Below the pieces are notes generated by a model. That model ran no database searches and was not told the DNA's origin. It saw only the letters and a program-made list of their open reading frames with translations. Both the position numbers and the translations under genes were made by a program. This document shows, piece by piece, positions 1 through 56,252 of a DNA stretch of 58,084 nt. The stretch is taken from the sequence record SRR20825006_1106; one strand, given 5' to 3'. Numbering within the stretch: the stretch's first letter is position 1; the number at the start of each line of letters is the position of its first letter.

Positions 1-178
1 CTTTTAAATCACTTTTTTTAACAGACTCGGGTAAGCTACTACCACTTGGCCAATCTAAATTATATACCGTAGTAAGCCATACCGCCCGTACCTCACTATT
101 TGGGAGCTCTGATTGTGCGAAGCTTAAGGAAGCTCCTAATAAACATATTGTGATAGCTAAGAGGCTTATTCTTTTCAT
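1..178 (-). CDS. 5' end of a second GHL10 (YddW/DUF187-like) glycosyl hydrolase, truncated by the window edge; not in the ORF track
   Basis: Manual translation from ATG at 178 gives MKRISLLAITICLLGASLSFAQSELPNSEVRAVWLTTVYNLDWPSGSSLPESVKKSDLK..., colinear with the N-terminus of the 247..2235 protein (AQSELPDREVRAAWIATVINLDWPSG...VKKTDLK). Confidence 0.9.
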   Translation of the reverse strand, partial: MKRISLLAITICLLGASLSFAQSELPNSEVRAVWLTTVYNLDWPSGSSLPESVKKSDLK

Positions 179-193
179 AATTGAATATTTGTG

Positions 194-231
194 AAAAAAA
201 AAGGAGCTAATATTTCTATTAACTCCTTTTT
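194..231 (-). terminator. Rho-independent terminator after the GHL10 gene
   Basis: Minus strand reads AAAAAGGAGTTAATA-GAAA-TATTAGCTCC followed by a T run. Confidence 0.85.
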
Positions 232-246
232 AATATGAAATTGATT

Positions 247-2235
247 TTATTTTATAAGAGTTAGTTTTCGTGTTAGAACAACACCACTACTCTTTAATTG
301 GTATATATACACACCAGATGCAAATGTGGATGCATCAAAATTAAAAGTATGCTCACCTTGTGCAAGTCTTGAGTTAACAAGAGTCGCAACTTCTCTACCT
401 AATACATCATACACCTTAAGAGATGCCAATCCTGTCTTACCAAGTTTGAATGAGATTGCAGTAGTTGGGTTAAAAGGATTTGGATAATTCTGATTTAGTG
501 AGAAATTATCTGCAATGCTAGTTTCTTCTTCTTTAGAAACTACCACACCTGCATCCTGAGGTTCAGACGGTTCACTTTCAACACCATTACGTGATACAGC
601 AGTCACAACATAATAAAAACGACCTTCTGAGCCAATTCCTACGATATCAGTAAATGTAGTTTCACCTGTTAACCCAATTCTATTTTCTGGATTACTAATC
701 ACTTCATTCACATCTGGTTCAGCTTGGCTATCTACACGATATATAGCGTAGTTCAATAAAGTATCAGCATCCGCAGTAGGAATATTCTTAGCAAGTGGAG
801 AAATAGGACGTTCCCAAGTAAGTGTAAACTTATTTTGTTGAGACTCATCTGGAGTTAAAACAATGCTTGATGGAGTAAAAGGCTCTGTTGTATCCAACCA
901 ACCCATTGTAGGTACAATAGCCGGCTTTCTATAATAATTTGTTATTAAAGAATCTCTTAACCCTTGAGAATAATAGGTAGTAATATTCTTCATTCTAAAT
1001 ATAGAAGAACCTTGAATATTAGGATTATTTCGAGCGTACTCAAGCTGTCTAGGAATTTCGGTAGCTTTAAAAGAAGTTCCTGAATAAGTACTTTTGTCGG
1101 ATCTGTAAGCGCCATGACCTGTATATAAATGACGATCATATTTAGCTACTTCTCCAGCCCACCAATCTGCTAGTTTTGCAAAATCTTGGCCACCACCAAA
1201 CTGCCAATACAGCTGAGGTAGTAGGTAATCAACATCGCCATTTTCTGCCCATTTAAGAGCATCAATATATAATGTTGTGTATGCATCTAAGCCAGAAATC
1301 CCAAATGGAACTCCATTTCTATGAATACCGAATGGACTAACACCGAATTTAACCCAAGGCTTTGCCGTTTTAATACTGTCATTTAATTGAGCAATAAATA
1401 TCTCTACGTTATCTCTTCTCCAATCATCTTTACTAGTAAATCCTCTAGGTTGTAAAGCAAAAGAACTATCATCTAAAGCATTATTGGCTGAGTTTGCACC
1501 CATATGGTTTGGAGGATAAGGATAGAAGTAATCATCAAAATGGATACCATCAACATCATATCTACTTACGATATCCATAATGATCATAGTAACATAATCT
1601 CTTACTTCTTGTAAACCTGGATCAGTTATAGCAATACTTCCATTAGTCCCAGCATTCATAACCATAATCCATTCTGGATGCTTATTTGCAACATGCATAG
1701 AATCTCTTTCAGTTGTTCCTATTTTAAACTTAGGAGCATTTACATCATATTCTTTACCCAATATTGCTTCAACACTTTCATCAATAGCTACTGCAATTTC
1801 TTTTTGAGTATAATCGGAAGGGATTGATCTCATCGCGCGATAAGGATTTAACCAAGCGTGTAATTCCATACCAAGCTTGTGAGCTTCTTCTACTGCGAAC
1901 GATAATGGATCCCAATATGGATCTGGTGCAACACCTTCTTCACCTGTTAGGTACTTTGACCAAGGCTCATATGGAGAATCATAAAGTGCATCTCCCTCAG
2001 CTCTAACTTGAAAGTATACAGTATTTATTCCTGCAGCTTTTAAGCTTATCAATTTATTTTTTAAATCAGTCTTTTTAACCTCTTCAGGTTGGGTATTCCC
2101 ACTAGGCCAGTCCAAGTTTATAACTGTTGCAATCCATGCTGCCCGTACCTCTCTATCAGGAAGTTCTGATTGGGCAAAGCTAACAGAGCCTAATAAGAAA
2201 CTAACACATATAACTAATAAGCTTATTTTTTTCAT
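247..2235 (-). CDS. GHL10 (family-10-like glycosyl hydrolase, YddW/DigH family) with FN3-like domain and T9SS type A C-terminal sorting domain
   Basis: Motifs EVRAAWIATV.NLDWP, YFQVR, HAWLNPYRA, RYDVDGIHFDDYFYPYP, FGVSPFG, PQLYW; tail NYPNPFNPTT...SGVYIYQL...LTLIK. Start moved to MKKISLL (signal peptide) because the upstream TTG lies inside a terminator. Confidence 0.9.
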   Translation of the reverse strand: MKKISLLVICVSFLLGSVSFAQSELPDREVRAAWIATVINLDWPSGNTQPEEVKKTDLKNKLISLKAAGINTVYFQVRAEGDALYDSPYEPWSKYLTGEEGVAPDPYWDPLSFAVEEAHKLGMELHAWLNPYRAMRSIPSDYTQKEIAVAIDESVEAILGKEYDVNAPKFKIGTTERDSMHVANKHPEWIMVMNAGTNGSIAITDPGLQEVRDYVTMIIMDIVSRYDVDGIHFDDYFYPYPPNHMGANSANNALDDSSFALQPRGFTSKDDWRRDNVEIFIAQLNDSIKTAKPWVKFGVSPFGIHRNGVPFGISGLDAYTTLYIDALKWAENGDVDYLLPQLYWQFGGGQDFAKLADWWAGEVAKYDRHLYTGHGAYRSDKSTYSGTSFKATEIPRQLEYARNNPNIQGSSIFRMKNITTYYSQGLRDSLITNYYRKPAIVPTMGWLDTTEPFTPSSIVLTPDESQQNKFTLTWERPISPLAKNIPTADADTLLNYAIYRVDSQAEPDVNEVISNPENRIGLTGETTFTDIVGIGSEGRFYYVVTAVSRNGVESEPSEPQDAGVVVSKEEETSIADNFSLNQNYPNPFNPTTAISFKLGKTGLASLKVYDVLGREVATLVNSRLAQGEHTFNFDASTFASGVYIYQLKSSGVVLTRKLTLIK

Positions 2236-2263
2236 AATCGTTTTAAAAAGTCTTAGTGGTAAT

Positions 2264-2294
2264 AAAAAAAAAGGCAGCATAACGCTGCCTTTTT
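2264..2294 (-). terminator. Rho-independent terminator
   Basis: Minus strand AAAAAGGCAGC-GTTAT-GCTGCC followed by T9, 18 nt after the stop of the 2313..3683 gene. Confidence 0.85.
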
Positions 2295-2312
2295 AAAGAA
2301 CAAATAAATTGA

Positions 2313-3683
2313 TTATTTAATCAATGTCATTTTGTTTGTTAAGCGTACACCATTAGCCTGTAGGCTATATAGGTAAACACCAGAAGCAAGATTACTTGCA
2401 TCAAAAGTAGCAGTATGAGTACCAGCTGTAAATCTTCCGTTAGCTAAAGTAGCAACTTCACGTCCAGTCATATCATACACTTTAATACTAACTAAACCAG
2501 AATTTTTCACAGTAAAGTTAATGTTAGTAGTAGGGTTGAATGGGTTTGGATAGTTTTGCTCTAACTCATAACCAGAAGGTAGTTCTGCAACTTCATTTTC
2601 ATTAGCTACAGTTGGCTCACCTGGAACATATTTCTGAACTGCAGGAGAACCTGCACCAAACATAGAGATGTAAGCAACACCACCGTCAGCAGTAAAGTCA
2701 ATACCTCTTGGTCTAGCATCGCCATAAGTACCATCAATAGTACCAGCATTCCAAAGAATACTATCTACAGGTGCTTCGTTTTCAGTTCCTAAATCAGCAA
2801 CATCAAACGCGTAGAACGTTTCTGGACGGTATTTGTCTGTATCAGGGAAATCATTAGTTGAACCAGCACCAACCCAAAGGTTGCCTGTTACAGGGTGTAG
2901 GTCAAAAGCTTCTGATTTTATACCAGCAAGAACAGTATCAGGAATTGTGTTAAAACCACTGAATTCATCAGGACGAGTATATTTAAGAACTGCGCCTAAA
3001 GTATAACCAGCCCACCAGATAGTATTACCATCAGCTGAAACTTGGAAATCACGTGAAAAACTACCAGTTAATGTAAATAGCTCTTCTGGATTTTCTAAAT
3101 TTGAATCAAACTTAACTATTGGTGCGTCAGCGCCAACAACTGCAGAAACATATGCGTTTCCATCAGCATCAAAAGTAGCTTCTGTAAGAGAGCCAATACC
3201 TGGTTCTACTTTTTTCAATACTTTTCCAGTTTTGTAATCAAACTTGAAAAGAGTTAACCACTGAGATGCAACAACATTTCCATCAGCATCAGCGGCAATA
3301 CCACGACCAGTACGAGTATCATATCCACCAGCACCATCAGCTAATGTTGGATCCCAAAAACGACCTAAAGTGTCATTAGCGGTTGTACCATCAGCCCATT
3401 CAAGAATATATAGTGGGCTAAAGTCAGCTGGCGAACCATCTGCATTGTATACATAGATAGCCGTAGTTGTAACGGTATCTTTTGTTCTGTTTAACACAAC
3501 ATTTTCAGTTGCGTAGTAAGGTTGCATCCATACTTTTCCATCAGGATCAACAGCAACTCCGTGAACATCACGCAGGTTGTCAGTTCCAAATGCTTTAAAA
3601 GTAGTGTCTTGTTTCCACTGAGCTGACACCAAGCTTGGTAAAAGCATTAGTGCAAGAAGTGGAAGAATTAGCAATTTTTTCAT
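2313..3683 (-). CDS. Secreted beta-propeller (NHL-like) protein with T9SS type A C-terminal domain
   Basis: Sec signal peptide ending VSA-Q; repeated blade motifs (HGVAVDPDGKVW, RGIAADADGNV, RDFQVSADGNTIW, RGIDFTADGGVAY); tail NYPNPFNPTT...SGVYLY...MTLIK; AGGAG upstream of ATG. Confidence 0.8.
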   Translation of the reverse strand: MKKLLILPLLALMLLPSLVSAQWKQDTTFKAFGTDNLRDVHGVAVDPDGKVWMQPYYATENVVLNRTKDTVTTTAIYVYNADGSPADFSPLYILEWADGTTANDTLGRFWDPTLADGAGGYDTRTGRGIAADADGNVVASQWLTLFKFDYKTGKVLKKVEPGIGSLTEATFDADGNAYVSAVVGADAPIVKFDSNLENPEELFTLTGSFSRDFQVSADGNTIWWAGYTLGAVLKYTRPDEFSGFNTIPDTVLAGIKSEAFDLHPVTGNLWVGAGSTNDFPDTDKYRPETFYAFDVADLGTENEAPVDSILWNAGTIDGTYGDARPRGIDFTADGGVAYISMFGAGSPAVQKYVPGEPTVANENEVAELPSGYELEQNYPNPFNPTTNINFTVKNSGLVSIKVYDMTGREVATLANGRFTAGTHTATFDASNLASGVYLYSLQANGVRLTNKMTLIK

Positions 3684-3772
3684 AAATGTTCTCCTATTTG
3701 TATCTGTTTTATCTATAACGATATTGATTTGCTGAATGAACAGCTGTTATTGTTTCTGTGAAGTCTCTGTGA

Positions 3773-5041
3773 TTAATAAACTCCTGCACGAGTTTTATCA
3801 TAAGTATCTAAATAGTTAATACTCGCCTCTGTACCGTTTACTCCAACTACCATAAAGCGATCACTTCTCCAACTTAGAGTAAATGCACCTTCTTTTATAA
3901 CTCCATCATAAAATGGAATATGAGATTTGTTAGGAAAGATCTTAACCAAACTCTCTACTGCAGTTGTAGCTAGGATCAAATCTCCATTAGAAGCCAATAT
4001 CATAGACCGAATGCTTCCATCATAGTTAGCTTGGAAATCGAAGTATTTTTCTCCAACACCTAAGTCTCCATTAGCATCAACTGGAATTCTCCATATTTCT
4101 TTATTACCGTTTATACTTCCGGCAACAAATAAGAAGTCTTCAAAAACAGCTACTGCATTTAAATCGCCCACGAAAGGAAACTTAGTTTCGGCTTTTGTAA
4201 CTGCGTTAAAGCGATGAATATTATCACTACCTAAGCCAACAACCCAAAGGAAACCTTTTGAATCTTTAACCATATTCATAATTTTTAGGCCACCAGAAGA
4301 TGAAGCAGCCCAAACTGATTCTCTTTTATCGTCCCCAAATGTCTTTTGGAAAATAGCTCGAATACTCTGTTGACTCATAAGCAATGTATCACCACCATTA
4401 TATACAATAGAGCTATACTGAGTGAAGCGCATTGTACTATCGGTAGGATAAGGTCGTGTATCACCAAAAGTAGGTCTTGCTTCACCTGAAGCTTTTACTT
4501 GATCAAGCGTGATAGTACCATCTGGGGCTATTTTAGAATAACGAATTCTACCCGTAGCACTGTTGTCAACAATAGTGTAAATATTGTCATCACCATCCAT
4601 TGCAATACCTGATGTAGGCGCGTGATTTGCACTTGTACCATTATAAAAATCAAATGGGTCGTCTAGCTTATAAGGAAAAGTATTACTAAAAAACTCAGAT
4701 CCTCTAACAGAGATTCTTACTGGAACCTCATTGCCTACTTTAAAACCTGGACGAACTACCATCTGTGTAGAGTTTGATCTGTAAATAATACCTGGAACTC
4801 CACCAAAATTTAAAGTCATACTATCCAAATCAGTAGTGAAATTCTCACCATTAATAATAAGAGAATCAACTCCTGCTAAATATCCACTAGCAGGTATAAT
4901 ACTACTTATCACTGGACTAGGCTGAGATGATTCGTAATCTGGGTCAAATAAACTTCCAGCTTCCTTTTTACAAGAAGAAGTAAGCATTAATAACCCAGCT
5001 AAGCCTAGTGCTAATATTCTATTTCTGTCTAATTTATTCAT
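3773..5041 (-). CDS. Lipoprotein with IPT/TIG domain and C-terminal beta-propeller
   Basis: Lipobox LTSS-C; IPT-like PVISSIIPASG...LIINGENF; propeller-like repeats (GIAMDGDDNIY, MVKDSKGFLWV, MILASNGDLI). Confidence 0.75.
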   Translation of the reverse strand: MNKLDRNRILALGLAGLLMLTSSCKKEAGSLFDPDYESSQPSPVISSIIPASGYLAGVDSLIINGENFTTDLDSMTLNFGGVPGIIYRSNSTQMVVRPGFKVGNEVPVRISVRGSEFFSNTFPYKLDDPFDFYNGTSANHAPTSGIAMDGDDNIYTIVDNSATGRIRYSKIAPDGTITLDQVKASGEARPTFGDTRPYPTDSTMRFTQYSSIVYNGGDTLLMSQQSIRAIFQKTFGDDKRESVWAASSSGGLKIMNMVKDSKGFLWVVGLGSDNIHRFNAVTKAETKFPFVGDLNAVAVFEDFLFVAGSINGNKEIWRIPVDANGDLGVGEKYFDFQANYDGSIRSMILASNGDLILATTAVESLVKIFPNKSHIPFYDGVIKEGAFTLSWRSDRFMVVGVNGTEASINYLDTYDKTRAGVY

Positions 5042-5052
5042 TAACAAACCTA

Positions 5053-6069
5053 TTAAAAATCTAGTCTAAAACTAATTCTGTTAACATTTCCAAAAACTCC
5101 AAACTCTGTATAAGCATAGTCTACAGATAAATTAATTTTCCCTAAAGGCTGTGTAATACCACCGCCAAAAGAGATGCTTTCCTCATCCTCAGATGGAATT
5201 GCATATCCACCTCTTATATTAAAACGGTTTAAGAATCCATAATCTAAACCTAACACTAGTTGCTCATCATAATCCCGAGGTCTACGAGCGTCAATACTTA
5301 CTAAAAGACTATGAGTATTCCCATCTAGTTTTGTTAAATCTATAACATCCATGGCTAGGCCAATCTTAAAAGTCATTGGTAATTCAGCACTTTCATCATC
5401 AAAAGAAATTTCTTTTGAGAAATTTTGAACAACCATAGCAAAATTTAAGCTTTCAAATCCAGTCTTATAAAGAACTCCAAAATCAAGAACTCCTGTACTT
5501 GCGCTGAAAGATTCACTTAAATACCCACCAGCACCGTCAGTGTTCATATTTATTGAACCTAGCTTTTGGGTTACATATCTAAAATTTGCACCAACTGAGA
5601 ATTGTTCTGTAATTGCATTAGCATAAGCAACGCCAATCGCTACACCGCTCGGGTTAACAGCATCAACATCTCTATATCCACTAGGTAATGAACCATCTAC
5701 CACTGTAGATAAGATAGAACCATAATCTACAGATAAGACGTTGAAACCTATTACTCCAAAATTTCGATTAGTAGGACGAAATGTAAAAGAAGCAGAGTTA
5801 TAGTTTATATCTGCAATGTATTGAACTACTCCACCGCTAAAATCGTATTTGCTATCTGAATTAGCAATTGCAGCTGGGTTATAAAATACTGATGATGATC
5901 CTAATTCTAAAGCAGTTACTGCATTCGACATAGCCGCAGCATTTGCCGAAGGTGAAACACTCAGAAATTTCATGCTTGTTTGCGCTCTTTTTGATTGTGC
6001 CACAACATCTAAAGTAGAAAGCGACAAACCAATAATAAATAAGAAGGTAATTTGATATTTTCTCACCAT
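5053..6069 (-). CDS. PorV/PorQ-family outer-membrane beta-barrel (FadL-like fold)
   Basis: N-terminal FLSVSPSANAAAMSNA...SVFYNPAA signature of PorV/FadL-like barrels; alternating beta-strands; C-terminal DYAY..FG.FG.VNRISFRLDF. Confidence 0.8.
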   Translation of the reverse strand: MVRKYQITFLFIIGLSLSTLDVVAQSKRAQTSMKFLSVSPSANAAAMSNAVTALELGSSSVFYNPAAIANSDSKYDFSGGVVQYIADINYNSASFTFRPTNRNFGVIGFNVLSVDYGSILSTVVDGSLPSGYRDVDAVNPSGVAIGVAYANAITEQFSVGANFRYVTQKLGSINMNTDGAGGYLSESFSASTGVLDFGVLYKTGFESLNFAMVVQNFSKEISFDDESAELPMTFKIGLAMDVIDLTKLDGNTHSLLVSIDARRPRDYDEQLVLGLDYGFLNRFNIRGGYAIPSEDEESISFGGGITQPLGKINLSVDYAYTEFGVFGNVNRISFRLDF

Positions 6070-6076
6070 TGCTCCG

Positions 6077-8224
6077 TTACAAAATAATTACAATTTTTCG
6101 AATCACAACTCGTCCATACTCAGGATCATTCTCATCCTGATTCGTAATTCTAGCTATATAAATACCGCTAGCTACTCGTTGCCTATCCTCTGTCCTCAAA
6201 TCCCAATATTCATCACCACTACCATTAACATGATAAATAGTTCTTATTGGTTCACCTATTTCTGTATAGATATCAATCTTAGATATACCAGGAATTTCAT
6301 AGAAGGCGATTCTATCATTTCCACTTTGATCTAAAAGTAAAGATTTATCAATGTTACTATTGTATGGATTTGGAACTACACGAATATCCGACATTGCTTC
6401 GCCAGCTTGTCTTAGTAATCGAGCGGGATCATATGTTTGAGAGTAATATCTATTGCTTCTAAGGCTTACACCTGTAGGTGTACTTCCCGTTGCGTCATTA
6501 TTTGGTTTGCCTTTAGCCACCACATAATAATAATAGTCACGGCCACGCACAGGAGTTGGTGTATCTTCAGAATACCCACCAGGATCGTTTGCTCTTGCAA
6601 CATCCCCATCACTAATAAAGCGTGTACCCGGTAGAGCTGTATAAACTAATCTATAAGTACTATCAACACGGCCTGATGCTCTATAGATTTCAAAACCATC
6701 TATTCCTGATTCATCATCATAATCCCAAGTAACTTCAATACCATTACCCGCTGAGTTTACAATTACATTAGTTGGTGGTAATGGCCCCTCTGGAATGTCA
6801 TAACCTGATTGATAATTTTTTATCGCACGGTCGAAAGTTTGGAATAGTGAATCTCTACCTTGGAAAACAACTTGATTCTTTTCGAGATTTGAAATTAAAC
6901 CATTCTTAAAGTCTGCACCCGTTTTGTTAGCTAACTCTTTATCTATACCAGCAGAACCTTCAGCTATTACTATAGTCACACTTTCACCTGGTGCTAAAGT
7001 ATAAGGACCATAGCCAGTGTTATACGACCAACCACCAGCAGTTGCACCTGTTGAAGGATCTTTCGTAGGGTCAAGAAAGCCTGGTAAACCACTTGGCTCT
7101 ATTTTAAAAGCTTGTCTAGGAGTCCTACCTTCGCTCATTAAGTTATATTCTGCTTCCATTTTTAATGGATCAAACGGACTATTATTTCTCGATAATAATC
7201 CATCTGAATCAGATTGAGACATAGTGGAAGGTTGATTGATGTCATCTGATTTATCCGTTGCTGATTTATCAGCATGTAAAGTTACTGAACCCACAAAGTG
7301 ATAAGCTACTAAAGCACCCGTTGTATCAGCAGCGTCTAACCAACCACCTGTTGTGTTTGGTACCCAAATAGGACCACCGATATTATCAAAATCAGCAGGA
7401 GCACCAGTTGGTTTGTACGTAGAAAACAAACCATGCCAAGCAAAATGAGCTCTAAAATCTTCAACCTCACCAGGCTGCATACCATCACCTCTACGGTCAA
7501 TCATGGTGTTTAACCCCCAACCGGTACCGTTACCAACAGTATAACGACTTGCTTTAACAGGAGCCATTCTATTTTGAAGGAATAAATAAACGTTATTTAC
7601 AGTTTCGTTAGGAAGTTCAATTTCAGCATCGTCATCAGTATTACCAGTGTTTGTTAATGTATACTCTATCACATGGTAATTGTCGTGATATTGTTGACTA
7701 AACTGTTTAGCAGTTCTTGTTAACGTAATACCTAACAGAGAATTCATTTCCGTAACAATTGCCCGATCTGCTTTCATCGCAGGGTCTACTTCGTCGTTGT
7801 TTACATTCTTACCGTAAGAACCTAATCCATCAACGTAAACTTCCGGAGGAGCAAATCTACTCACTGTTTTAATTTCTACAGGGTAAAATTCACCAAGACC
7901 TGTTACACGAGGTCCAACGTGAACTACTCGATAATCATAGGTATTACCCTGATCATCAACTACATCAGTTGCGCCAATCCACATAGCTTTAGCAGCCTGC
8001 GCATCCTGCCCTCTGTAAATAGCTGGCCATTGCCAACCACCTTGCTGTTCTTTTATAAAGCCTTCTTCAATTTCAGAACCAATACTGGAATAGAAATTAT
8101 GAAAGGATCCCACATTAAGCCATCTGTAATCTATCTGCGCATAACTATATGACGCGAAGATTATTGAGAAAGCAAGGGTTAAAAATAGTTTTTTGGAAAT
8201 ATTGTAAATCATATATCGATACAT
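6077..8224 (-). CDS. Secreted protein of unknown function with FN3-like domain and atypical T9SS-like C-terminal domain (VVPNPY type)
   Basis: Signal peptide ending SYA-Q; FN3-like PLPP...VTWD...GFEIYRAS...YYYYVVA; tail DIRVVPNPY...IDIYTEIGEPIRTI...WDLRT...VASGIYIARI. Start uncertain (8212, 8224 or 8236). Confidence 0.7.
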   Translation of the reverse strand: MYRYMIYNISKKLFLTLAFSIIFASYSYAQIDYRWLNVGSFHNFYSSIGSEIEEGFIKEQQGGWQWPAIYRGQDAQAAKAMWIGATDVVDDQGNTYDYRVVHVGPRVTGLGEFYPVEIKTVSRFAPPEVYVDGLGSYGKNVNNDEVDPAMKADRAIVTEMNSLLGITLTRTAKQFSQQYHDNYHVIEYTLTNTGNTDDDAEIELPNETVNNVYLFLQNRMAPVKASRYTVGNGTGWGLNTMIDRRGDGMQPGEVEDFRAHFAWHGLFSTYKPTGAPADFDNIGGPIWVPNTTGGWLDAADTTGALVAYHFVGSVTLHADKSATDKSDDINQPSTMSQSDSDGLLSRNNSPFDPLKMEAEYNLMSEGRTPRQAFKIEPSGLPGFLDPTKDPSTGATAGGWSYNTGYGPYTLAPGESVTIVIAEGSAGIDKELANKTGADFKNGLISNLEKNQVVFQGRDSLFQTFDRAIKNYQSGYDIPEGPLPPTNVIVNSAGNGIEVTWDYDDESGIDGFEIYRASGRVDSTYRLVYTALPGTRFISDGDVARANDPGGYSEDTPTPVRGRDYYYYVVAKGKPNNDATGSTPTGVSLRSNRYYSQTYDPARLLRQAGEAMSDIRVVPNPYNSNIDKSLLLDQSGNDRIAFYEIPGISKIDIYTEIGEPIRTIYHVNGSGDEYWDLRTEDRQRVASGIYIARITNQDENDPEYGRVVIRKIVIIL

Positions 8225-8232
8225 TAAATCAA

Positions 8233-11200
8233 TCAAAATGAAAATCTAATTCCGAATCGGAATGTTCTCGGGTTAAAAAAGTTAAAGAAACGCTGATCAG
8301 GCATGTTGATATATGCCTTTTCATCTAACACTTTTTTCACTTTATCACTGTCAGCATCTACAAAAGAGCCGTTTACATACTGATAATATTTAGCTTCAAT
8401 AGAGTTGTAATACAATGCTCTAGTATTTGGGTTCGAAACATTTGTATGATCTGTAGTTACTTCTATTGGTACAAAATCAACATCTGGAGCTCTATAATCA
8501 CCAGGACGGTCATTACCAGGTACTCTAGAATTAAGAAGATTTATCTCTTCTAATTTATCTTTTGGCAATTGAAGAGAAGCCATATAATTCAGATAATCAG
8601 TACCTGTTACCGCGCCCATGTTGAATATATTGAGCACTCTTTGATTTAACACGTTACTAACATCCATAAAGAAATTAACTCTTCGATTTTCGTTAAATTT
8701 AATTTCTTTAGACAACCTTAAAGAGGTAGACCAAGAATCTCTTAACTGGAAGTTACGTATCACACCTGGCATTGAGCCACCGCCAGTATAAGTTATATAA
8801 CTACCAGCACTCCAAGAAACAATTGTACTAAAATTCCAATCAGCCAAAGGTTTACTACCCATCAATGTAGGTCCAAATTCTTTTGGAGACTTCATATATA
8901 GTTGAACTCTAGCGTATGGCTGAGGAATTGGCTTTGAAATATCATTTTCACTAGTCGAACGGTCATAAGCTCTTTGCTCGAAAGAGTTTTGATATACTTC
9001 TAATGATCCAAACAAACCTGATGATCTTACACTGTAAGTATAACTCACTTCACCCCAGATTAAATCTGATGGTTGCTTTTTCAAAGTTACTTCAAGACCT
9101 CTAATATCTTCATAAGAATACGGCTTACTCACAGAATAAGACCCGTCATTACTTCCGTATACATCAATAACTATTGGTTGTTGGCTCAAATCTTTGTAAT
9201 AACCACTAACTCTGAAAAGATATTTGTTAAATAGATTTTGCTCATAACCTAACTCATAAGAAACAGTTTTTGGAATCTTATTCTCAGGAGCAGCAATTCT
9301 AACAATAGAATTAGTGAATGGCTCAACTCTTACTAAATACAAATCTTCTGGATCTGGAAGTTGTAAGAAGTGACCGTAATTAAAAAACAACTTACTGTTA
9401 TCAGTGATTGGGAAAGCTACACCTAATCTTGGTTGAAAGATTAACTGTGGTTTTACACTGTATGTATTTAATGAGTCAATATTGGTGTTACCACCGCTTT
9501 TAAATACATCGTCAAAGGTATCGTATTCGTACCAATCTATATTAGGATCAGCATAAGTAAATCTTAAACCAACATTTGCAATCATTCCTTTGAACTCAAG
9601 CTTGTCTTGAACATAGGCAGATAATCTTATTGGCGTTGTATCCCACTTTGAAGAATATCTTCCTGAAGGCAGGTTCTTATCAAATGAACCGTAGTTTATA
9701 TCACTATGAGTTCTAATCAATTCTAAACCAGCTTTAACTTGGTTTACTCTATCTAATTGACTAGTAACAGCAAAACTGGTTGTTAGTACAGATACCTCTG
9801 AGCTATCTCGTGAATTACTCATACCAATACCCATTCTCATACCAGAACCAATACCACTGCTTTGGTCTTCAAAAAATCCGTACGGGCCTTCATCAAAATC
9901 AAGACCGCCAATTGTAACAGCACCAGGAGCTCCTCTATAAGCACCAGGATTAGTACTATTCTTTGTAGCAAATCTGTTCATTTTTACTTCATAGAAAGTA
10001 GTATTAGTAATAGTATGAGTAAACTGAACACCAATATTAGAAGTGGTCACTTTAGTTGGAGCCCAATAATCACTTGCATAAATACGAGTGTCAATGTAAC
10101 TCACTTGATCCATACTACTCGCAATACCTGTCGGCGACACAAAGAAGCCAGGATTACCCGATTGACTAGAACCAGTACCTGTTTGAGTACCATAAAGACC
10201 GTCGAATGAAAGCTTCATACCTGGAGCAACATTACTTGTAAGCTTACCCATCCAAGTTGTGCTTTCATAAGCATCTTCTGATAATGGAATAAAATATTCG
10301 GTATTGGTTTTACGAAAAGATGTAGAAAATCTGAGATTACCCATTTTTTCACTTAAAAATGGAACGGGACCACCTAACGTTAAATCAATTTCATAATCTG
10401 ATTCATCAATTTCCATTTCCTTTCTGTGTTGCCATAGAAATAATTGTTGTGCTCCTTCTGGAGTTAAATCATTACTAGGGTCATCATCAGATAACAATTC
10501 TTGAGAAACCTCATTCCAACCTTTAAAAACTGGATACTCATCTTGGGTATATACATCCCAATTTCCATTATCTGTACCAGTCCATGCAACATCATCATCC
10601 AAAAAAGGACGAATCCAATATGAATCTGGATCATTAACACTTTGTCCAAAATTCTTTGCTTGCGGTGGAGTTACCCTCACAATACCATCAAGAGTATACC
10701 TATCAGGATTACCTTCTTTACTGGTAACGTTTACAACACCCGAACGCACATCACCATATTCAGCGTTAAAACCACCCGTTTGAACCTGAACATTCTCAAT
10801 TGAGGTCACACTAATACCTGTAAACGGTGTATTATCTCGTTCAGATCGCAAGCTCAAGCCATTTAAATTAAAAGACACTTCATCACTACCACTACCACGA
10901 ACACTTAAACCCTCAATACCAGCCTGCAAACCAATTGCAGAGGTTACACTCGTAATAGGAAGCGCTTCGAGCTCACTTTTATTAATACTAGATAGACTAG
11001 AAGAAACATCCCTTTTTATTATAGGCTTTTCAGCTATAACTACAATTTCTTCACCCTCAATAAGCTGCTCTGAAAGCGAAAAATTAATTTCAGTTGTTAA
11101 TCCAATCTCAATTTGCACATCCTCAACTTTAACAGTAGCAAAGCCAATGTAGGTTGCCTTTAAAACGTAAGTACCTGCACTTAAATTTAAGATTGTATAG

Positions 11201-11376
11201 TATCCATCTGCATCAGATGAAGTTCCTGTGGTAGTTTGGTCTACGATAACATTTACCCCTGGCAAAGGATCGCCATTAGTATCAGTTACACGCCCTGTGA
11301 CTTTACCGGTTTGGGCATACAGGGAGGCTGATAATAAAAAAAGAATGATAGTAGACAGTAACGGTTTTTTACCCAT
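8233..11376 (-). CDS. TonB-dependent receptor with N-terminal carboxypeptidase-regulatory-like domain
   Basis: Signal peptide; GKVTGRVTD.NGDPLPGVNV N-domain; plug motifs VRGSGSDEV and VQTGGFNAEYG..RSGVVNVTSK; barrel motifs QPRLGVAFPI and YELGYEQ; C-terminal PRTFRFGIRFSF. Start taken at MGKKPLL. Confidence 0.92.
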   Translation of the reverse strand: MGKKPLLSTIILFLLSASLYAQTGKVTGRVTDTNGDPLPGVNVIVDQTTTGTSSDADGYYTILNLSAGTYVLKATYIGFATVKVEDVQIEIGLTTEINFSLSEQLIEGEEIVVIAEKPIIKRDVSSSLSSINKSELEALPITSVTSAIGLQAGIEGLSVRGSGSDEVSFNLNGLSLRSERDNTPFTGISVTSIENVQVQTGGFNAEYGDVRSGVVNVTSKEGNPDRYTLDGIVRVTPPQAKNFGQSVNDPDSYWIRPFLDDDVAWTGTDNGNWDVYTQDEYPVFKGWNEVSQELLSDDDPSNDLTPEGAQQLFLWQHRKEMEIDESDYEIDLTLGGPVPFLSEKMGNLRFSTSFRKTNTEYFIPLSEDAYESTTWMGKLTSNVAPGMKLSFDGLYGTQTGTGSSQSGNPGFFVSPTGIASSMDQVSYIDTRIYASDYWAPTKVTTSNIGVQFTHTITNTTFYEVKMNRFATKNSTNPGAYRGAPGAVTIGGLDFDEGPYGFFEDQSSGIGSGMRMGIGMSNSRDSSEVSVLTTSFAVTSQLDRVNQVKAGLELIRTHSDINYGSFDKNLPSGRYSSKWDTTPIRLSAYVQDKLEFKGMIANVGLRFTYADPNIDWYEYDTFDDVFKSGGNTNIDSLNTYSVKPQLIFQPRLGVAFPITDNSKLFFNYGHFLQLPDPEDLYLVRVEPFTNSIVRIAAPENKIPKTVSYELGYEQNLFNKYLFRVSGYYKDLSQQPIVIDVYGSNDGSYSVSKPYSYEDIRGLEVTLKKQPSDLIWGEVSYTYSVRSSGLFGSLEVYQNSFEQRAYDRSTSENDISKPIPQPYARVQLYMKSPKEFGPTLMGSKPLADWNFSTIVSWSAGSYITYTGGGSMPGVIRNFQLRDSWSTSLRLSKEIKFNENRRVNFFMDVSNVLNQRVLNIFNMGAVTGTDYLNYMASLQLPKDKLEEINLLNSRVPGNDRPGDYRAPDVDFVPIEVTTDHTNVSNPNTRALYYNSIEAKYYQYVNGSFVDADSDKVKKVLDEKAYINMPDQRFFNFFNPRTFRFGIRFSF

Positions 11377-11417
11377 TGGGTGCTGATTAAGTTTCTTGTT
11401 CCTGCATTTACCACACA

Positions 11418-11526
11418 TTAAGGAAAAGTTTACTCTGAGTAAAATCCTAATTGCGATGGTTTTTACATTTAAAGTTATTTTACAAATTCTTACAATTCGT
11501 GTTCTTTATTTTTCAATTTTTTACAA
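11418..11526. promoter_or_regulatory. Divergent promoter region with palindrome and TTACAA repeat array (candidate operator)
   Basis: TTTACTC-T-GAGTAAA palindrome at 11429-11443; TTACA(A) at 11463, 11480, 11490, 11521 and TTTCAA at 11511. Confidence 0.4.
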
Positions 11527-11593
11527 AAGCATTTTTCGATTTAATCATCCATATTGTCCCTTCGATAAAACACTAGAGAATATATTTTTAACC

Positions 11594-12373
11594 ATGAGTA
11601 CCACTTACACAAGCTATTTACAAATAAACCCGCTTTTGGAACTACAAAAGCTTCAATCTTCTCCAAAAGAACACGATGAAATGCTTTTCATCATAATACA
11701 TCAAACATATGAATTATGGTTCAAACAAATTCTTCATGAGTTTACAAAACTTTCGTCGGAACTCAACGATGGAAATACATGGGGTTCTGTAAAAACTTTA
11801 CGTAGAGTTTTAACCATTTTTAAGACTTTAGTTGGTCAAATTGACATTCTTGAAACCATGACTCCCCTAGAGTTTAATAGCTTTCGGAAATTTTTGGGTC
11901 AGTCTAGTGGCTTTCAGTCTTTACAATTCCGAGAAATAGAAATCCTCTGTGGTTTACGTTTTCCTTTAATGAAGGAAGCTCATAAAGAAGTTCCAGCTCA
12001 TCTTTTAGTACTCGAGAAGCGTATGGAGCAACTAACTCTTTGGGAAAGTTTCTGTAACTACCTTTCGCATAAAGGATATGATGCAAAACCCATCCGAGAA
12101 AATGAAAAAGGTCTGTTATTCAACCCTTCAGATAAAATTCAGTCTACTTTGATTGAAGTGATGAACTCAAACCCAGAAGCAGCCATGGTTAGTGAACTTT
12201 TAGTAGATTTTGATGAAGGTCTTCAGGAATGGAGATACCGACACGTTAAGATGGTAGAGCGAACCATTGGAACAAAAAAAGGAACGGGCGGTTCTGATGG
12301 CGTTACATATCTTAAAAAAACATTAGATCGTTCAATCTTTCCAGATTTATGGGCGATTCGATCTGAGTTTTAA
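11594..12373 (+). CDS. kynA: Tryptophan 2,3-dioxygenase
   Basis: Motifs Y.SYLQI..LL.LQ, HDEMLFIIIHQTYELWFKQ, LETMTP.EF..FR, SSGFQS.QFR, WRYRHV.MVERTIG.K.GTGGS.G..YL. Start moved to MSTTYTSY. Confidence 0.95.
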   Translation: MSTTYTSYLQINPLLELQKLQSSPKEHDEMLFIIIHQTYELWFKQILHEFTKLSSELNDGNTWGSVKTLRRVLTIFKTLVGQIDILETMTPLEFNSFRKFLGQSSGFQSLQFREIEILCGLRFPLMKEAHKEVPAHLLVLEKRMEQLTLWESFCNYLSHKGYDAKPIRENEKGLLFNPSDKIQSTLIEVMNSNPEAAMVSELLVDFDEGLQEWRYRHVKMVERTIGTKKGTGGSDGVTYLKKTLDRSIFPDLWAIRSEF

Positions 12374-12513
12374 AACTCTTTATTACTGATTTTTTTACGC
12401 CTCCATGATTTGCTTAATTTATTGTTAACTTTTCTCATTGTTAATTAACACAATCCATTTCAGAGACCGAAGTACTCAAATAGTGCTTACCCACTTCTCA
12501 ATTATATTCTATT

Positions 12514-13698
12514 ATGTTAGATATCGATCAATTAGCCCACTCACTAACTCCTCATTACTCACACTTTAAAGTTTCGGAACGGCTTTTATTTACTGGACAC
12601 TCTCACCAAGCTTGGCCAGATGTTGCTTTAGAAGGACAAAAAGAATACTTCTTGGATTCAGCTGAACTAGTAGATAAGAAATGGGAGAAAGCTGCTGAGA
12701 AAACAGAAATTCTTAGAAACTACTTACGTAACTTTTATGACGACCCTGACGGCTTTTATTGTCGAGAAGAAAACACGCACTTTCTATTTGTGAGTTGGTT
12801 AAGTAGCCTTGACCTTAAACAGAAGCCAAAGGTTATTTCTACTGATGGTGAATTTCATTCCCTATACCGACAATTACACCGGCTTGAAGAAAACGGACTT
12901 GAAGTAGCATGGGTAGAAACCAATCCTGATGAAACTTTTGCAAAGCGCATTATTGCAGAGATGGATGATAGAACTTCTGCAGTAATGCTTTCTAGAGTTT
13001 ATTTTGAATCTAGTTTGATAAACACTCATCTATCAGAAATTGCTAAAGCGGCTCGGGATAAAGGCATCCCCGTTCTTATTGATGACTACCACGGAACTAA
13101 TGTAGCTCCACTATCTATACGCAATGCAGATTTAGAAGACTGCTTTTTCATGATTGGTGGCTATAAATATTTACAATGGGGAGAGGCTAATTGCTTCCTC
13201 CGTTTTCCAAAAAACTGTGACCTTCGGCCTGCAATTACAGGTTGGTTTGCTTCGTTCAGCACACTTGAAAAGCCGAGAACCTCTGCCCTTACCGAATATG
13301 ACAATTCTGATCAAAGATTTGCAAGTGGAACTTATGACCCTTCTTCTCAATATAGAGCCGCTAAGGTAGTAGAATTTTTTAAAGAACAGAATCTAACTCC
13401 CGAAATATTAAGAGAACAGTATCAACAAAAAGTTGGGTTACTAAAAGATCATTTTCAGAATCTCAATATCTCACCTAGCCTAATAAAACTTACCCATACT
13501 CGTGATTTAGAATTTAATGGCGGATTTCTGTCCCTTACCTCGCCTAAAGCACAAGAGATACGAGCTCGTCTTCTCGAGAAAGACATATTTACTGATGCTA
13601 GAGGAAACATCATTAGATTTGGCCCAGCTCCTTATACTACTACAGCCCAAATTGAACAAGTGATGAAAGAACTTAACATTGTAATTGATGCACTTTAA
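12514..13698 (+). CDS. kynU: Kynureninase-like class V PLP enzyme
   Basis: Class V PLP motifs (LIDDYH, GGYKYLQWG, PAITGWFA, DARG..IRFGPAPY); located next to kynA. Confidence 0.75.
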   Translation: MLDIDQLAHSLTPHYSHFKVSERLLFTGHSHQAWPDVALEGQKEYFLDSAELVDKKWEKAAEKTEILRNYLRNFYDDPDGFYCREENTHFLFVSWLSSLDLKQKPKVISTDGEFHSLYRQLHRLEENGLEVAWVETNPDETFAKRIIAEMDDRTSAVMLSRVYFESSLINTHLSEIAKAARDKGIPVLIDDYHGTNVAPLSIRNADLEDCFFMIGGYKYLQWGEANCFLRFPKNCDLRPAITGWFASFSTLEKPRTSALTEYDNSDQRFASGTYDPSSQYRAAKVVEFFKEQNLTPEILREQYQQKVGLLKDHFQNLNISPSLIKLTHTRDLEFNGGFLSLTSPKAQEIRARLLEKDIFTDARGNIIRFGPAPYTTTAQIEQVMKELNIVIDAL

Positions 13699-14800
13699 AA
13701 AATACAGATCCATTTTCGCACTGGTTGCTACCTTAATACTTTTGCAAAGCAACATAATTGCGCAAAACAAAATTTCAGGCAAGGTATTAGATAAGGAAGA
13801 TTCTGAACCAATCATCGGTGCTCAGATTTTTCTAAGCGGGACAACTATTGGAACCGTTAGTAATGCTGATGGACACTTTATATTAGATGGGATTCCAGAA
13901 GGAATTTATGAACTGCTAGTAACATCGTTAGGGTATAACAGGGTTTCTTCTGAACTGAATACAAGTAAAATTAAGCCTTCTTACTCCTTTACACTTGAAT
14001 CTCAAGTCTATGAATTAAATGAACTCACCGTTGTGCCAAATTCAGAAGATTGGAAATACAATTTTGAAGAGTTTGAACGAATTTTTATTGGTGAGGGTCC
14101 ATTTTCTAAAGACACTAAAATCATTAATAAAGAGGTTCTAAATTTCGATTTCGACCCCACAACTAGGGTTTTAACTGCCTACGCTTACGATAAACTAGTT
14201 ATTGAGAATAAAGCATTAGGCTATAGAATTAGTTATTTCCTTGAAAGCTTCACTCTAGATTATAAGAATAAAATAACCTCCTATTTAGGACGACCACTCT
14301 TTGAACTTTTGACAAGTAAAAGAAAAAGAACCCAATCTAAATGGAAGAAGAACAGAGCTCTCGCTTATAATGGATCCTTTCAGCACTTTGTAGAGTCTCT
14401 GATCGAAAATAAGGTTGCTGAAAATGGATATACTATAAAAGGAGAAATGCGGAAAGATGGATCTCGTTATATTGGGAAAGAAACTGTTCATCAAAATGTG
14501 TTCTTTGCACAAATAGATAGCTCTAATTTTGAACTAAGTTTTATCAATTTTCTCAATGTCACATACGAAAATGAGCTCGAAGACATTACTTACTTATACT
14601 ATCTAAGCTCACCTATCTCGTCCAATAACCGCATGCTTGTTCTTCCTCAAACATCTATGCTCACTTTAAACCAAGCATCTGTCAAAATTCATGAATCGGG
14701 ATACATTTATGATTCTCTAGCTATTCTTTTTGATGGTTATTGGGGCTTTGAGAAAATGTCTGATACCGTTCCTTTAAATTTTATCCCAGAGTCTGATTAA
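13688..14800 (+). CDS. Exported protein with carboxypeptidase-like regulatory (CarbopepD_reg_2) N-terminal domain
   Basis: Signal peptide; ISGKVLDKEDSEPIIGA.IFLSGTTIGTVSNADGHF...SLGY; C-terminal GYW..EKMSDTVP motif typical of FCB hypothetical proteins. Confidence 0.75.
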   Translation: MHFKKYRSIFALVATLILLQSNIIAQNKISGKVLDKEDSEPIIGAQIFLSGTTIGTVSNADGHFILDGIPEGIYELLVTSLGYNRVSSELNTSKIKPSYSFTLESQVYELNELTVVPNSEDWKYNFEEFERIFIGEGPFSKDTKIINKEVLNFDFDPTTRVLTAYAYDKLVIENKALGYRISYFLESFTLDYKNKITSYLGRPLFELLTSKRKRTQSKWKKNRALAYNGSFQHFVESLIENKVAENGYTIKGEMRKDGSRYIGKETVHQNVFFAQIDSSNFELSFINFLNVTYENELEDITYLYYLSSPISSNNRMLVLPQTSMLTLNQASVKIHESGYIYDSLAILFDGYWGFEKMSDTVPLNFIPESD

Positions 14801-14874
14801 ATTTTTTTTGTAAGGAATTTTATAAAAGCCGCTCTAACATATATATCATACACATCAGAAAAATAAAATATCTA

Positions 14875-14953
14875 TTTGCAATTACATATATTGAACATAT
14901 ATTCTTTGCAATGTTTATGTGACACGTTCTGACACTCTGTATGTGTAACTTTG
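14875..14953 (+). promoter_or_regulatory. recA promoter/operator region
   Basis: TAACTTTG (Bacteroidota-type -7 element TAnnTTTG) at 14946-14953; GAACATATATTC near-palindrome at 14893-14904; TGACAC direct repeat at 14920 and 14930. Confidence 0.45.
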
Positions 14954-14988
14954 CATAAAGTAACATTCTAAAATTAACGAATAACATC

Positions 14989-16105: not shown

Positions 16106-16771
16106 ATGGATAACCCAAAAGAATTCGATTTTCCAATAACAATTGCACGCATTGAAGTGCAAAAGAAGAACCATGCACGCTATTCTCTGTATTCGGATAC
16201 AGAATTTATTTTAGGTGTGTCTGATGCCGCTCTGGCAAAACTAAATATTCGAAAAGGTTCTGTATTAACAACCTCACTTTATGAACAAATTATCAAGGAG
16301 GAGACTTTTTGGAAGACAAGGGAATATTTAATTCGCTTACTTTCAAGGCGAGATCATGCTAGTTTTGAATTACAACAAAAAGCAGCTAAGAAAGAGTTTA
16401 CCCCTGAAATAATTAACCAAATTATTGAAGAATTAGAGCAGAAAGGATATATCAATAATCAAGCCTTTGCACTAAAGTACGTACACGATAAGTTTGAGTT
16501 TAATAAATGGGGAAGCAATAGAATTCGTACTGAACTTATTAGAAAAAATATTCCTAAACACTATATTGAGTCTGCAATAGACCACCATTTTGGTAGTGAA
16601 AAAGTACAAGCCACATTAATGGCTCTTACTTTAAAAAAGAAATCACAATTATTAAGAACTAGTCCAGAAAAAAGAAAAAAGAAATTGTTCGACTTTTTAA
16701 TGAGAAAAGGCTACGATACGAACAGCATTTTAAAAGAGATTGACGCACTAGTTAAGTTAGTTGAAGAATGA
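16106..16771 (+). CDS. recX: Regulatory protein RecX
   Basis: Directly after recA; LLSRRDHAS.EL..K, GYIN...FA, KWG..RI..EL, FLMRKGY motifs. Confidence 0.9.
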   Translation: MDNPKEFDFPITIARIEVQKKNHARYSLYSDTEFILGVSDAALAKLNIRKGSVLTTSLYEQIIKEETFWKTREYLIRLLSRRDHASFELQQKAAKKEFTPEIINQIIEELEQKGYINNQAFALKYVHDKFEFNKWGSNRIRTELIRKNIPKHYIESAIDHHFGSEKVQATLMALTLKKKSQLLRTSPEKRKKKLFDFLMRKGYDTNSILKEIDALVKLVEE

Positions 16772-54813: not shown

Positions 54814-55962
54814 CTAATTTGGAAGGCTAATCTTTCCTAAACTTATTTGCGTTCCGTTAACTTCAAAGCCATTTCCTCGGAATAAGTCATCAGCTAGAAA
54901 AGCCATTAGTGCTGCTTCTTTCGCATCAGGGAGCATTCCAAGCTCTTCAAAGTTTTTAACTTGGGCATTAGGCAATCGTTCAGCTAAGCTAGCCATCATA
55001 GTTTTGTTATGAATACCGCCCCCACTTGCATAAAGCTCAAAAACATCTTTACCTGAAATCTCATCAAAAGCTCGTGAAATACTCTGAACAGTTAGCTGAG
55101 TTAATGTAGCTATCAAATCTGTTGGATTTAGCTGAATTTGATACCCTTTCATCAACTCCTCTACCAGCTCCAAGTTGAAGTCTTCTTGACCTGTTGTTTT
55201 TGGAAATGGTTTTCTGAAATAAGGTTCTAACAATAAATATTTCAATAATTCGGAATGTACTTTTCCCAATTTGGCAACATCTCCGCTGGCATCATAGGCC
55301 TTGTTGAAATGCTTTTGCATTGCCTCGTTTATCAGCGTGTTTGCTGGACCTGTGTCTGAAGTAATAATTGCCTTCCCACTTTGCTTTGCTGGTAACCATG
55401 TAAAGTTGGCGATTCCTCCTAGGTTTAGTAGCACTCGGTTCTTGGACTCGTGCCTAAACAATACATCATCCATCAGCGCTACAAGCGGAGCTCCTTCGCC
55501 ACCCGCAGCGGTATGCTTTTGCCGAAAATCAGAAATAGTAATTATTCCTGTCTTTTGGGCTATGTGATCACCATCCACAATCTGCAATGTACTATTGAAG
55601 TCATCACCAGGCTGATGATACAATGTTTGCCCATGAGAGGCGATGGCATCAACATCCTTTACTGAGAAATTCCATTCTTCAATCGCTTCTAAAATCCAAC
55701 TACTATACAAATGCGCTAACTCTGTATTAAGCACACACACTTCTTGTAAATCGACGGTTTGTTTGGATTGGACAGCGCGGAGTCTTGCTCTTAAACCCGC
55801 ATCATACTCTACGGTTTTAAATTCAAGAACCTTAACACTCGATTCCGAACATTCACAAAGTGCCATATCTAGCCCGTCTAAAGAGGTCCCAGACATCAAT
55901 CCAATAATAATTCGAGAGGATTTTTGAGTAATTTCAGAAAGTAGAGAGAGTTGCTTGTTCAT
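54814..55962 (-). CDS. anmK: Anhydro-N-acetylmuramic acid kinase
   Basis: IGLMSGTSLDG.D, SHGQT..H, DFR, GGEGAPL, LNLGGIAN, DTGPAN, PKTTG.E.F, KEA...AFL. Start at MNKQLS. Confidence 0.96.
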   Translation of the reverse strand: MNKQLSLLSEITQKSSRIIIGLMSGTSLDGLDMALCECSESSVKVLEFKTVEYDAGLRARLRAVQSKQTVDLQEVCVLNTELAHLYSSWILEAIEEWNFSVKDVDAIASHGQTLYHQPGDDFNSTLQIVDGDHIAQKTGIITISDFRQKHTAAGGEGAPLVALMDDVLFRHESKNRVLLNLGGIANFTWLPAKQSGKAIITSDTGPANTLINEAMQKHFNKAYDASGDVAKLGKVHSELLKYLLLEPYFRKPFPKTTGQEDFNLELVEELMKGYQIQLNPTDLIATLTQLTVQSISRAFDEISGKDVFELYASGGGIHNKTMMASLAERLPNAQVKNFEELGMLPDAKEAALMAFLADDLFRGNGFEVNGTQISLGKISLPN

Positions 55963-55977
55963 AGTGGAAACTCGGAG

Positions 55978-55985
55978 TATTTTTG
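55978..55985 (+). promoter_or_regulatory. Putative Bacteroidota-type -7 promoter element
   Basis: TATTTTTG matches TAnnTTTG, 21 nt upstream of the ATG at 56007. Confidence 0.4.
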
Positions 55986-56006
55986 CATCGAAACAAATCC
56001 AAAACA

Positions 56007-56252
56007 ATGAGCGATACAGAAGAATTAGATTACCAATCTTTCGAAGAAGATTTAAAATTTTTGATAACTACGTTAAAAGACAGTTTTGAGTCTACCGATG
56101 TGGAATATTATGTAGACGACCACAACGAGATTCTCTATGTTAAGTTAGAAGGTTTAGACGAATATCCTGAGCATGAAATTGAGGAAATTGCTACTCCGAT
56201 ATTTGAAGAATTAGACATGGATTTTGAAGAAATCATCCTCTTATCACTCTAA
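56007..56252 (+). CDS. Small, very acidic hypothetical protein (81 aa)
   Basis: ATG preceded by an A-rich tract; 27 Asp/Glu, 3 Lys and no Arg by manual count; fills the gap between anmK and thrC. Confidence 0.75.
   Translation: MSDTEELDYQSFEEDLKFLITTLKDSFESTDVEYYVDDHNEILYVKLEGLDEYPEHEIEEIATPIFEELDMDFEEIILLSL

Follow-up and report, generated by a model that had tools for sequence, protein, structure and literature searches.

The 58,084-nucleotide (nt) stretch SRR20825006_1106 (the window, at its full length) carries at positions 1 to 11376 a run of minus-strand genes that, on balance, probably forms a foreign-peptidoglycan utilization locus built on a three-gene outer-membrane unit. This unit, the triad, consists of a TonB-dependent receptor, a 715-amino acid (aa) secreted protein, and an extra outer-membrane barrel of the PorV/PorQ family. 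Judged from homologous sequences, the receptor, the 715-aa protein with its supersandwich and FN3 domains and its own class of type IX secretion system (T9SS) tail, and the extra barrel are inherited together, in what is a conserved, apparently undescribed variant of the glycan-utilization locus. An earlier note, made from the DNA sequence alone, had proposed an uptake locus in which a T9SS-exported protein held by a dedicated barrel replaces SusD. From the names of its homologs, the window organism, a marine bacterium, appears to group with Balneolaceae. Genome-wide statements refer to the nearest genome, G001, which is 99% complete and 98.6% identical to the window over positions 1 to 15479.

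The conservation of the triad, which the earlier note had anticipated, was surveyed in 139 loci, comprising the best 79 of 518 confirmed matches to the 715-aa protein and 60 regions selected among the listed matches, with non-Balneola and divergent sequences favored. All loci were found via the 715-aa family, so the presence of that protein is by construction. Bacteroidia lie outside the survey, and the few loci with Cytophagia or Chitinophagia titles cluster with other lineages. The loci hold 142 homologs, 140 of them distinct. Genes that were truncated (two), split (one), or cut by a contig end on the side of the missing neighbor (six) were dropped before tails were counted, leaving 131; the tail of L115 was reclassified manually and the barrel of L084 was taken from tblastn. 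Every homolog with a triad-type tail has an adjacent barrel (122/122; 116 downstream and 6 upstream of the receptor) and 121 of the 122 directly follow a receptor, the remaining one having a receptor fragment at the locus edge, whereas none of the nine homologs with an ordinary tail adjoins a barrel or receptor. In a tree of 189 bodies, 26 changes of tail type are seen, of which 19 are forced by well-supported branches (14 unclassified rows left out).

Co-divergence was assessed by distance-matrix correlations after 115 triads had been thinned to 88. Tail distances follow those of the barrel (partial r 0.41 with the receptor controlled for), and all 11 length-matched windows of the body follow the receptor (0.63 to 0.82) but do not follow the barrel (−0.24 to 0.06). 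The pattern fits a protein whose one end would be held by the barrel and whose other end would match the receptor. Inter-protein mutual information in the same triads was uninformative, with similar top scores across all four pairs. Among the surveyed loci, L093 and L102 each hold two back-to-back triads with a barrel apiece, ordered receptor-partner-barrel and barrel-receptor-partner, and in L093 a namZ gene lies directly upstream. An extra gene of about 270 to 310 aa with no Pfam match stands between partner and barrel in L123 (the 7345-8300 region), L126, L132, L160:4110-5045, L163, and L150.

The 715-aa protein (6077..8224, minus strand, as are all features of the locus) comprises a signal peptide, a β-supersandwich domain, linker helices, an FN3-like domain, and the triad-type T9SS tail. 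Its AlphaFold model, built from 119 sequences, has a mean predicted local distance difference test (pLDDT) score of 92.4 and a predicted template modeling (pTM) score of 0.88, and is mostly β, with a C-terminal β-sandwich. The supersandwich (residues ~30-427; 6944..8137) aligns by VIA-align with 8rf9 (Z 18.6, root-mean-square deviation (rmsd) 3.1 Å, 253 residues aligned) and with the GH116 structure 7w2t (Z 18.3, rmsd 3.7 Å, 279 aligned). In fold it most closely resembles the non-catalytic N-terminal domains of GH94, GH116, GH15, and GH65 enzymes, and after these the aldose epimerases at Z 12 to 13; the catalytic helical barrel of the GH94/GH116/GH15/GH65 enzymes is missing from the 715-aa protein. 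The modeled fold suggests a sugar-binding role. The FN3-like domain (residues ~486-603; 6416..6769) is delimited by the secondary structure of the model, with FnIII matches in Foldseek and weak matches to pectate lyase FN3 domains. A Pfam scan of the 715-aa protein returned no family, and a search of its family against the sequences of solved structures gave only weak FN3 matches. The family is broad, with 1518 matches among 8000 scored candidates and 447 representatives at E 1e-30; of 301 genomes sampled in the phylum, 72 have it. In the ESM Atlas, the nearest clusters to residues 30-480 are unnamed and without Pfam annotation, and the commonest recorded phylum of the nearest one is Fidelibacterota.

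SusD is a helical TPR protein. Homology of the 715-aa protein to it was rejected, on the grounds that the SusD Pfam families match none of the six complete locus proteins at E 0.01, that its signal peptide has no lipobox cysteine, and that its model is mostly β; the fold-search rows for the model also contain no SusD entry, which by itself does not exclude SusD. The absence of a SusD-type lipoprotein after the receptor, reported in the earlier note, thus stands, and PF07980 does find three genes elsewhere in G001. That note had also named four findings that would count against its proposal. Three of them were looked for, namely a SusD-fold match to the 715-aa protein, a lack of triad conservation in other genomes, and this barrel being the sole housekeeping porV, and none was encountered.

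The tail of the 715-aa protein (6080..6400) is a C-terminal sorting domain of about 105 aa with a VVPNPY motif. It does not match the type A models TIGR04183 and PF18962 and weakly matches PorZ (by profile, and by Foldseek to 5m11 at E 8e-5); profile-profile alignment relates it to type A (hhalign 97%, E 7e-11). The G001 ortholog of the 715-aa protein scores 138 bits on a triad-tail profile and 18 on a type A profile. More widely, the five triad proteins of G001 score 53 to 138 bits on the triad-tail and 9 to 23 on the type A profile, and 13 ordinary cargo proteins score 111 to 133 bits on the type A and 8 to 21 on the triad-tail profile; the tail of PorU and three further tails fall in between or score low with both profiles. 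By these profile scores, the triad tail is a separate class, homologous to type A. The A1 profile, run against the partners of the other G001 triads, matches chiefly their tails, with a weak match close to the FN3 region, so the bodies of those partners may be of other families.

The extra barrel (5053..6069; 338 aa) scores 178 bits on NF033709 against a cut-off of 90, and matches the PorV of Flavobacterium johnsoniae (6h3i) by profile at E 2e-18. It falls below the equivalog cut-offs of both PorV (62 against 250 bits) and PorQ (88 against 220). G001 has 11 near-full-length members of the PorV/PorQ family, the counterpart of the window barrel among them; its true PorV (L013, 281 bits) adjoins porU, its true PorQ (L018) scores 296 bits, and there is a PorV2-like gene. 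The window barrel was accordingly rejected as the housekeeping porV, and the view of the earlier note that it is a dedicated copy gained ground from the separate PorV and PorQ and from the tail type going with the barrel. The barrels of triads of the 715-aa family form one group (support 100), separate from the housekeeping barrels. Type IX components in G001 include SprA (1487 bits) and PorU (1033 bits) besides PorV; GldM/PorM (TIGR03517) and PorP/SprF were not detected in G001, and neither was matched in any control genome.

Five G001 barrels have a receptor and a triad-tailed protein as neighbors; in one such unit the gene order differs and two genes are interposed. The other four units lie in L014, L016, L017, and L019, and their partners reach 1289 aa; genes for an ABC sugar transporter and two GH130 proteins come after the L014 unit, and L019 adjoins α-glucan-type genes and a LacI-type regulator (read from the sequence, not scanned). 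Tail-barrel pairs without a receptor are also found in G001, in L022:10477-17631, where a 2384-aa repeat protein has a barrel downstream, and in L021:7434-11028, where a 538-aa BNR propeller protein with a weak PorZ match is followed by two barrels.

The receptor (8233..11376; 1047 aa from its ATG) has a CarboxypepD_reg-like N-terminal extension and a plug domain in Pfam, and a barrel with long loop insertions. Every Foldseek match to its AlphaFold model (pLDDT 85.8) is a TonB-dependent receptor, with many receptor types ranking alike. The SusC/RagA model TIGR04056 reaches 83 bits against a cut-off of 368 and covers only residues 39-187; the window receptor is not a canonical SusC.

The seven genes of the run are, in order of transcription, those for the receptor, the 715-aa protein, the barrel, a lipoprotein, a propeller protein, a GHL10 enzyme, and a second, partial GHL10 enzyme, confirming the gene identities and common orientation given in the earlier note. 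The lipoprotein (3773..5041) has IPT/TIG and β-propeller domains and a Cys24 that is invariant in 59 aligned homologs. The propeller protein (2313..3683) and the first GHL10 enzyme (247..2235; PF02638, E 4e-67) carry ordinary type A T9SS tails. Of the second GHL10 gene, the window edge leaves only the 59 codons of the 5' end (2..178, an open reading frame (ORF) call), and its G001 ortholog is a full 663 aa with a type A tail (L015:2612-4603).

The only solved relative of the GHL10 protein is Cwp19 (5oq2, E 1.6e-77), and by eye 12 of the 13 Cwp19 active-site-pocket residues named in PMC5765458 are kept in the window enzyme. Cwp19 is described as a lytic transglycosylase that yields anhydro-muropeptides (PMC6016235), and DigH as cleaving peptide-free glycan strands (PMC12288456). 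Beyond the window edge, G001 has within about 15 kb downstream NAGPA, NagX-like, BadF-type kinase, GH3, NamZ, Amidase_3, AmpG-like, and NagB genes, with murQ elsewhere in the genome. The earlier note had adduced anmK, which is indeed present (54814..56007, minus strand), but at 43 kb from the locus it is unlinked and weak evidence, and recycling genes such as namZ are common in the phylum; we rejected it as locus evidence and keep it as context. It adjoins a 302-aa gene (53902-54810) with no Pfam or NCBIfam match.

The substrate can also be read from the gene content of related loci. In a FastTree tree of the 122 triad receptors, 101 form one clade with support 100. Enzymes of cell-wall type occur at 65 of the 101 clade loci and at one of the 21 outside, that one being at a locus that also holds a clade member. 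Among the 65, 55 have GHL10 and 21 have amidase, NlpC/P60, epimerase, or NamZ genes, and they are spread over Balneolota, Rhodothermota, Ignavibacteriota, and KSB1; loci outside the clade have xylan, pectin, GH2/GH31, GH5, GH16, or GH18 genes instead. A type A-tailed propeller gene is found at 77 of the 101 clade loci and at none of the 21 outside. Because the GHL10 enzymes carry export tails, the substrate should lie outside the cell, presumably in foreign walls. Peptidoglycan is, in our judgment, very likely the substrate, and the guess of the earlier note to this effect is strengthened by the Cwp19 match, the downstream recycling genes, and the amidases and murein-peptide enzymes of related loci.

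We propose the following model. The 715-aa protein would exit via the SprA translocon and be received by its cognate barrel, not by the housekeeping PorV; with its tail retained, it would then stay at the surface in the manner of PorZ on PorQ and of PorU on PorV. The supersandwich would work with the receptor and probably bind the incoming oligosaccharide, where Bacteroidia use lipid-anchored SusD. Ordinary type IX cargo, here the two GHL10 glycan-strand cutters and the NAGPA-family glycosidase and in other lineages amidases, would degrade cell-wall debris outside, and the receptor would import GlcNAc-MurNAc (N-acetylglucosamine-N-acetylmuramic acid) fragments. NamZ, NagZ-like GH3, amidase, AmpG-like permease, sugar kinase, AnmK, MurQ, and NagB may then pass the fragments into metabolism. 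Within this model we place the greatest confidence in the dedicated tail-barrel pairing, which is suggested by sequence comparison and is highly probable; that the surface protein works directly with the receptor is likely, and a true SusD-like lid role is less certain. A wider generalization is offered only tentatively: relatives of the Bacteroidia may have a second general importer design, a three-subunit complex whose substrate-capturing lid is type IX-exported and anchored to a private PorV-like barrel in place of a lipid, one clade of which might import foreign peptidoglycan fragments in Balneolota, Rhodothermota, Ignavibacteriota, and KSB1.

Several points weigh against this architecture. 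The contrast between tail type and neighborhood comes down to five independent pairs, which are concordant in all five cases but give a p of only 0.0625. Distance-matrix pairs are non-independent, and the tracking of receptor by body could come from a common substrate rather than contact. A shared supersandwich fold by itself proves no function; G001 also carries the three SusD matches, and as these stand beside five triads both importer designs coexist in that genome. Binding between receptor, partner, and barrel is a prediction from sequences and single-protein models. The same body also occurs without receptor or barrel, so it should be able to work alone, and its long ordinary-tailed forms are fusions to BNR, RCC1, LRR, or β-helix domains. 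The existence of such forms, free-standing with an ordinary tail or fused to other surface modules, would suit a barrel that is a dedicated shuttle or anchor for a surface enzyme or binder near the receptor, with neither a lid nor a stable complex. So would the many invariant polar and aromatic residues of the family (47 positions conserved at ≥97% among 119 sequences) and the catalytic aldose epimerases among supersandwich folds. We regard this as unlikely, given that the best fold matches are non-catalytic domains whose catalytic barrel is missing here, and that the triad-tailed form stands right after the receptor almost without exception and diverges in step with it. It is less plausible still, indeed very improbable, that the lipoprotein is the functional counterpart of SusD and the barrel and tailed protein an assembly or scaffold module for the receptor family. 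The lipoprotein is the sole one of the operon and occurs at 86 of the 101 clade loci, but a nine-member subgroup of the clade lacks it, as do three of the four other G001 triads, whereas the triad itself does not vary. It is also the gene with the lowest conservation, averaging 30% column identity where the triad protein has 47% and the receptor 59%.

The choice of peptidoglycan as substrate meets objections of its own. GHL10 proteins are not always peptidoglycan enzymes, DogH being reported to cut starch (PMC9967864), and Cwp19 is slow on peptidoglycan and has PgaB as a structural neighbor (both PMC5765458). The GH3, AmpG-like, NagX-like, and kinase proteins of G001 score under their NCBIfam cut-offs. 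With namZ in 292 of 301 genomes of the phylum, its co-occurrence cannot discriminate; 36 of the 101 clade loci have no cell-wall enzyme in the fetched flank, including a 14-member Rhodothermales group and the nine-member lipoprotein-less group, and the set of cell-wall markers was fixed only after the loci had been viewed. An importer of the same architecture could thus serve another GlcNAc glycan (chitin-like oligomers, poly-N-acetylglucosamine, or host glycans) with the recycling genes as housekeeping neighbors, and NAGPA, GH84, NagX-like, kinase, and NagB genes suit any GlcNAc source. What makes this improbable to us is that families specific to MurNAc or the stem peptide recur by the triad in distant lineages (secreted Amidase_3 at 15 loci, Amidase_2 at 2, NlpC/P60-SH3 at 4, and Ala-Glu epimerase-like at 5), and that in a KSB1 locus a NamZ gene lies directly upstream of the receptor.

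The earlier note described the genes as tightly packed, which holds for the first four (gaps of 8 nt between receptor and 715-aa genes, 7 nt to the barrel gene, and 11 nt, or 5 nt with an upstream TTG start, from there to the lipoprotein gene) and not for the rest, where the gaps are 89, 77, and 68 nt. Two hairpins with U-runs resemble intrinsic terminators, one at 2268..2294 between the propeller and first GHL10 genes (z −4.9) and one at 198..231 between the two GHL10 genes (z −6.6), both on the minus strand. Because they flank the first GHL10 gene, the first five genes are likely the core operon, and the sequence suggests that the GHL10 genes and the core are not simply one transcript; a single seven-gene transcript was rejected as a safe assumption. 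The ATG at 2235 is the likelier start of the GHL10 gene because the longer ORF from 2280 overlaps the first hairpin. A sigma-70 promoter scan gave 33 sites against 43.5 expected. Three runs presumed to be RNA (two samples, two studies) contain short, near-identical contigs over the propeller gene and over parts of the receptor, lipoprotein, and recA genes, and no listed piece spans two genes. A plasmid search gave no match.

Divergent from the receptor gene lie tryptophan 2,3-dioxygenase and kynureninase-like genes (11396-13698), a pair linked in 15 of 79 loci, all Balneolaceae, which is probably lineage synteny only. Elsewhere in the window, paralogous type IX cargo proteins, each of about 930 aa, are encoded in tandem (46200-49007 and 49413-52199); they contain BNR/sortilin-type propellers and have no assigned function. 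In some Balneola genomes, an ordinary-tailed, free-standing second copy of the triad protein lies between an AI-2E transporter and recX (L051:10007-12091, L057:10007-12079, L060:9947-12019); in the window, no gene stands at this place (16106-17856). The nine-member subgroup (L109, L111, L112, L114, L116, L118, L119, L121, L142) also lacks the propeller and GHL10 genes, and its triads are mostly followed by runs of TPR and FG-GAP/ASPIC genes; in L111 a true SusC/SusD pair is arranged tail to tail with the triad.

If our reading is right, the triad is a marker for glycan-utilization loci in lineages overlooked by susCD-based prediction. PULDB predictions of polysaccharide utilization loci (PULs) start at susCD pairs (PMC5753385), and triad loci would for that reason escape them. 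It would also bring the PorV family, whose type A-related cargo tails were said to share one PorV, into the range of cognate tail-barrel pairing in the type IX system, and would single out a specific candidate pathway for the uptake of dead-cell peptidoglycan by marine and sediment bacteria. In the related phylum Fidelibacterota, a cultured member is reported to depend on foreign muropeptides (PMC11652737). Neither the triad nor such a peptidoglycan locus is described in the open-access literature searched (which excludes subscription journals and supplements), including the excerpted text of the papers on Caldithrix (PMC5317091), the Cyclonatronum-type strain Omega (PMC6243061), and Fidelibacter (PMC11652737).

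Like SusC/SusD (RagA/RagB) PULs, the locus has a receptor with a CarboxypepD_reg extension followed by a surface partner, a lipoprotein, and secreted glycan-cutting enzymes, and paralogous triads have different enzyme sets (xylan-, pectin-, and mannan-type). Enzymes for one substrate are clustered, as in those PULs, with two GHL10 in the window and NAGPA, GH3, NamZ, and amidase in G001. Unlike SusC/SusD PULs, the partner is mostly β, type IX-tailed, and without lipobox or SusD domain, a barrel gene lies inside the unit, and the receptor is far under the SusC model cut-off. The pairing of a longer, variant-tailed protein with a PorV/PorQ-family barrel resembles PorZ-PorQ and PorU-PorV of Porphyromonas gingivalis, where PorU and PorZ are uncleaved and have longer tails (PMC11285876) and are anchored on PorV and PorQ, respectively (PMC12365241). 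Those pairs are parts of the secretion machine, and PorU, PorV, and PorQ are separate in G001, whereas the triad pair occurs in several copies, one at each receptor locus, and the 715-aa body is unrelated to PorU and PorZ. In F. johnsoniae, type B C-terminal domain (CTD) cargo has cognate PorP/SprF shuttles encoded directly downstream, and type A tails are stated to be all served by PorV (PMC12618676). The triad shares with type B cargo a special tail class, its own barrel gene directly downstream, and the existence of orphan forms; it differs in that the barrel is of the PorV/PorQ family, the tail is related to type A, and the cargo is tied to a nutrient receptor and not an adhesin. Finally, the GHL10 enzymes belong to the same Pfam family as Cwp19 of Clostridioides difficile and DigH of Escherichia coli, sequence closeness and pocket conservation being shown for Cwp19 only. 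Cwp19 and DigH act on their own cell wall; the type IX export tail of the window enzyme, in a diderm, points instead to an extracellular substrate.

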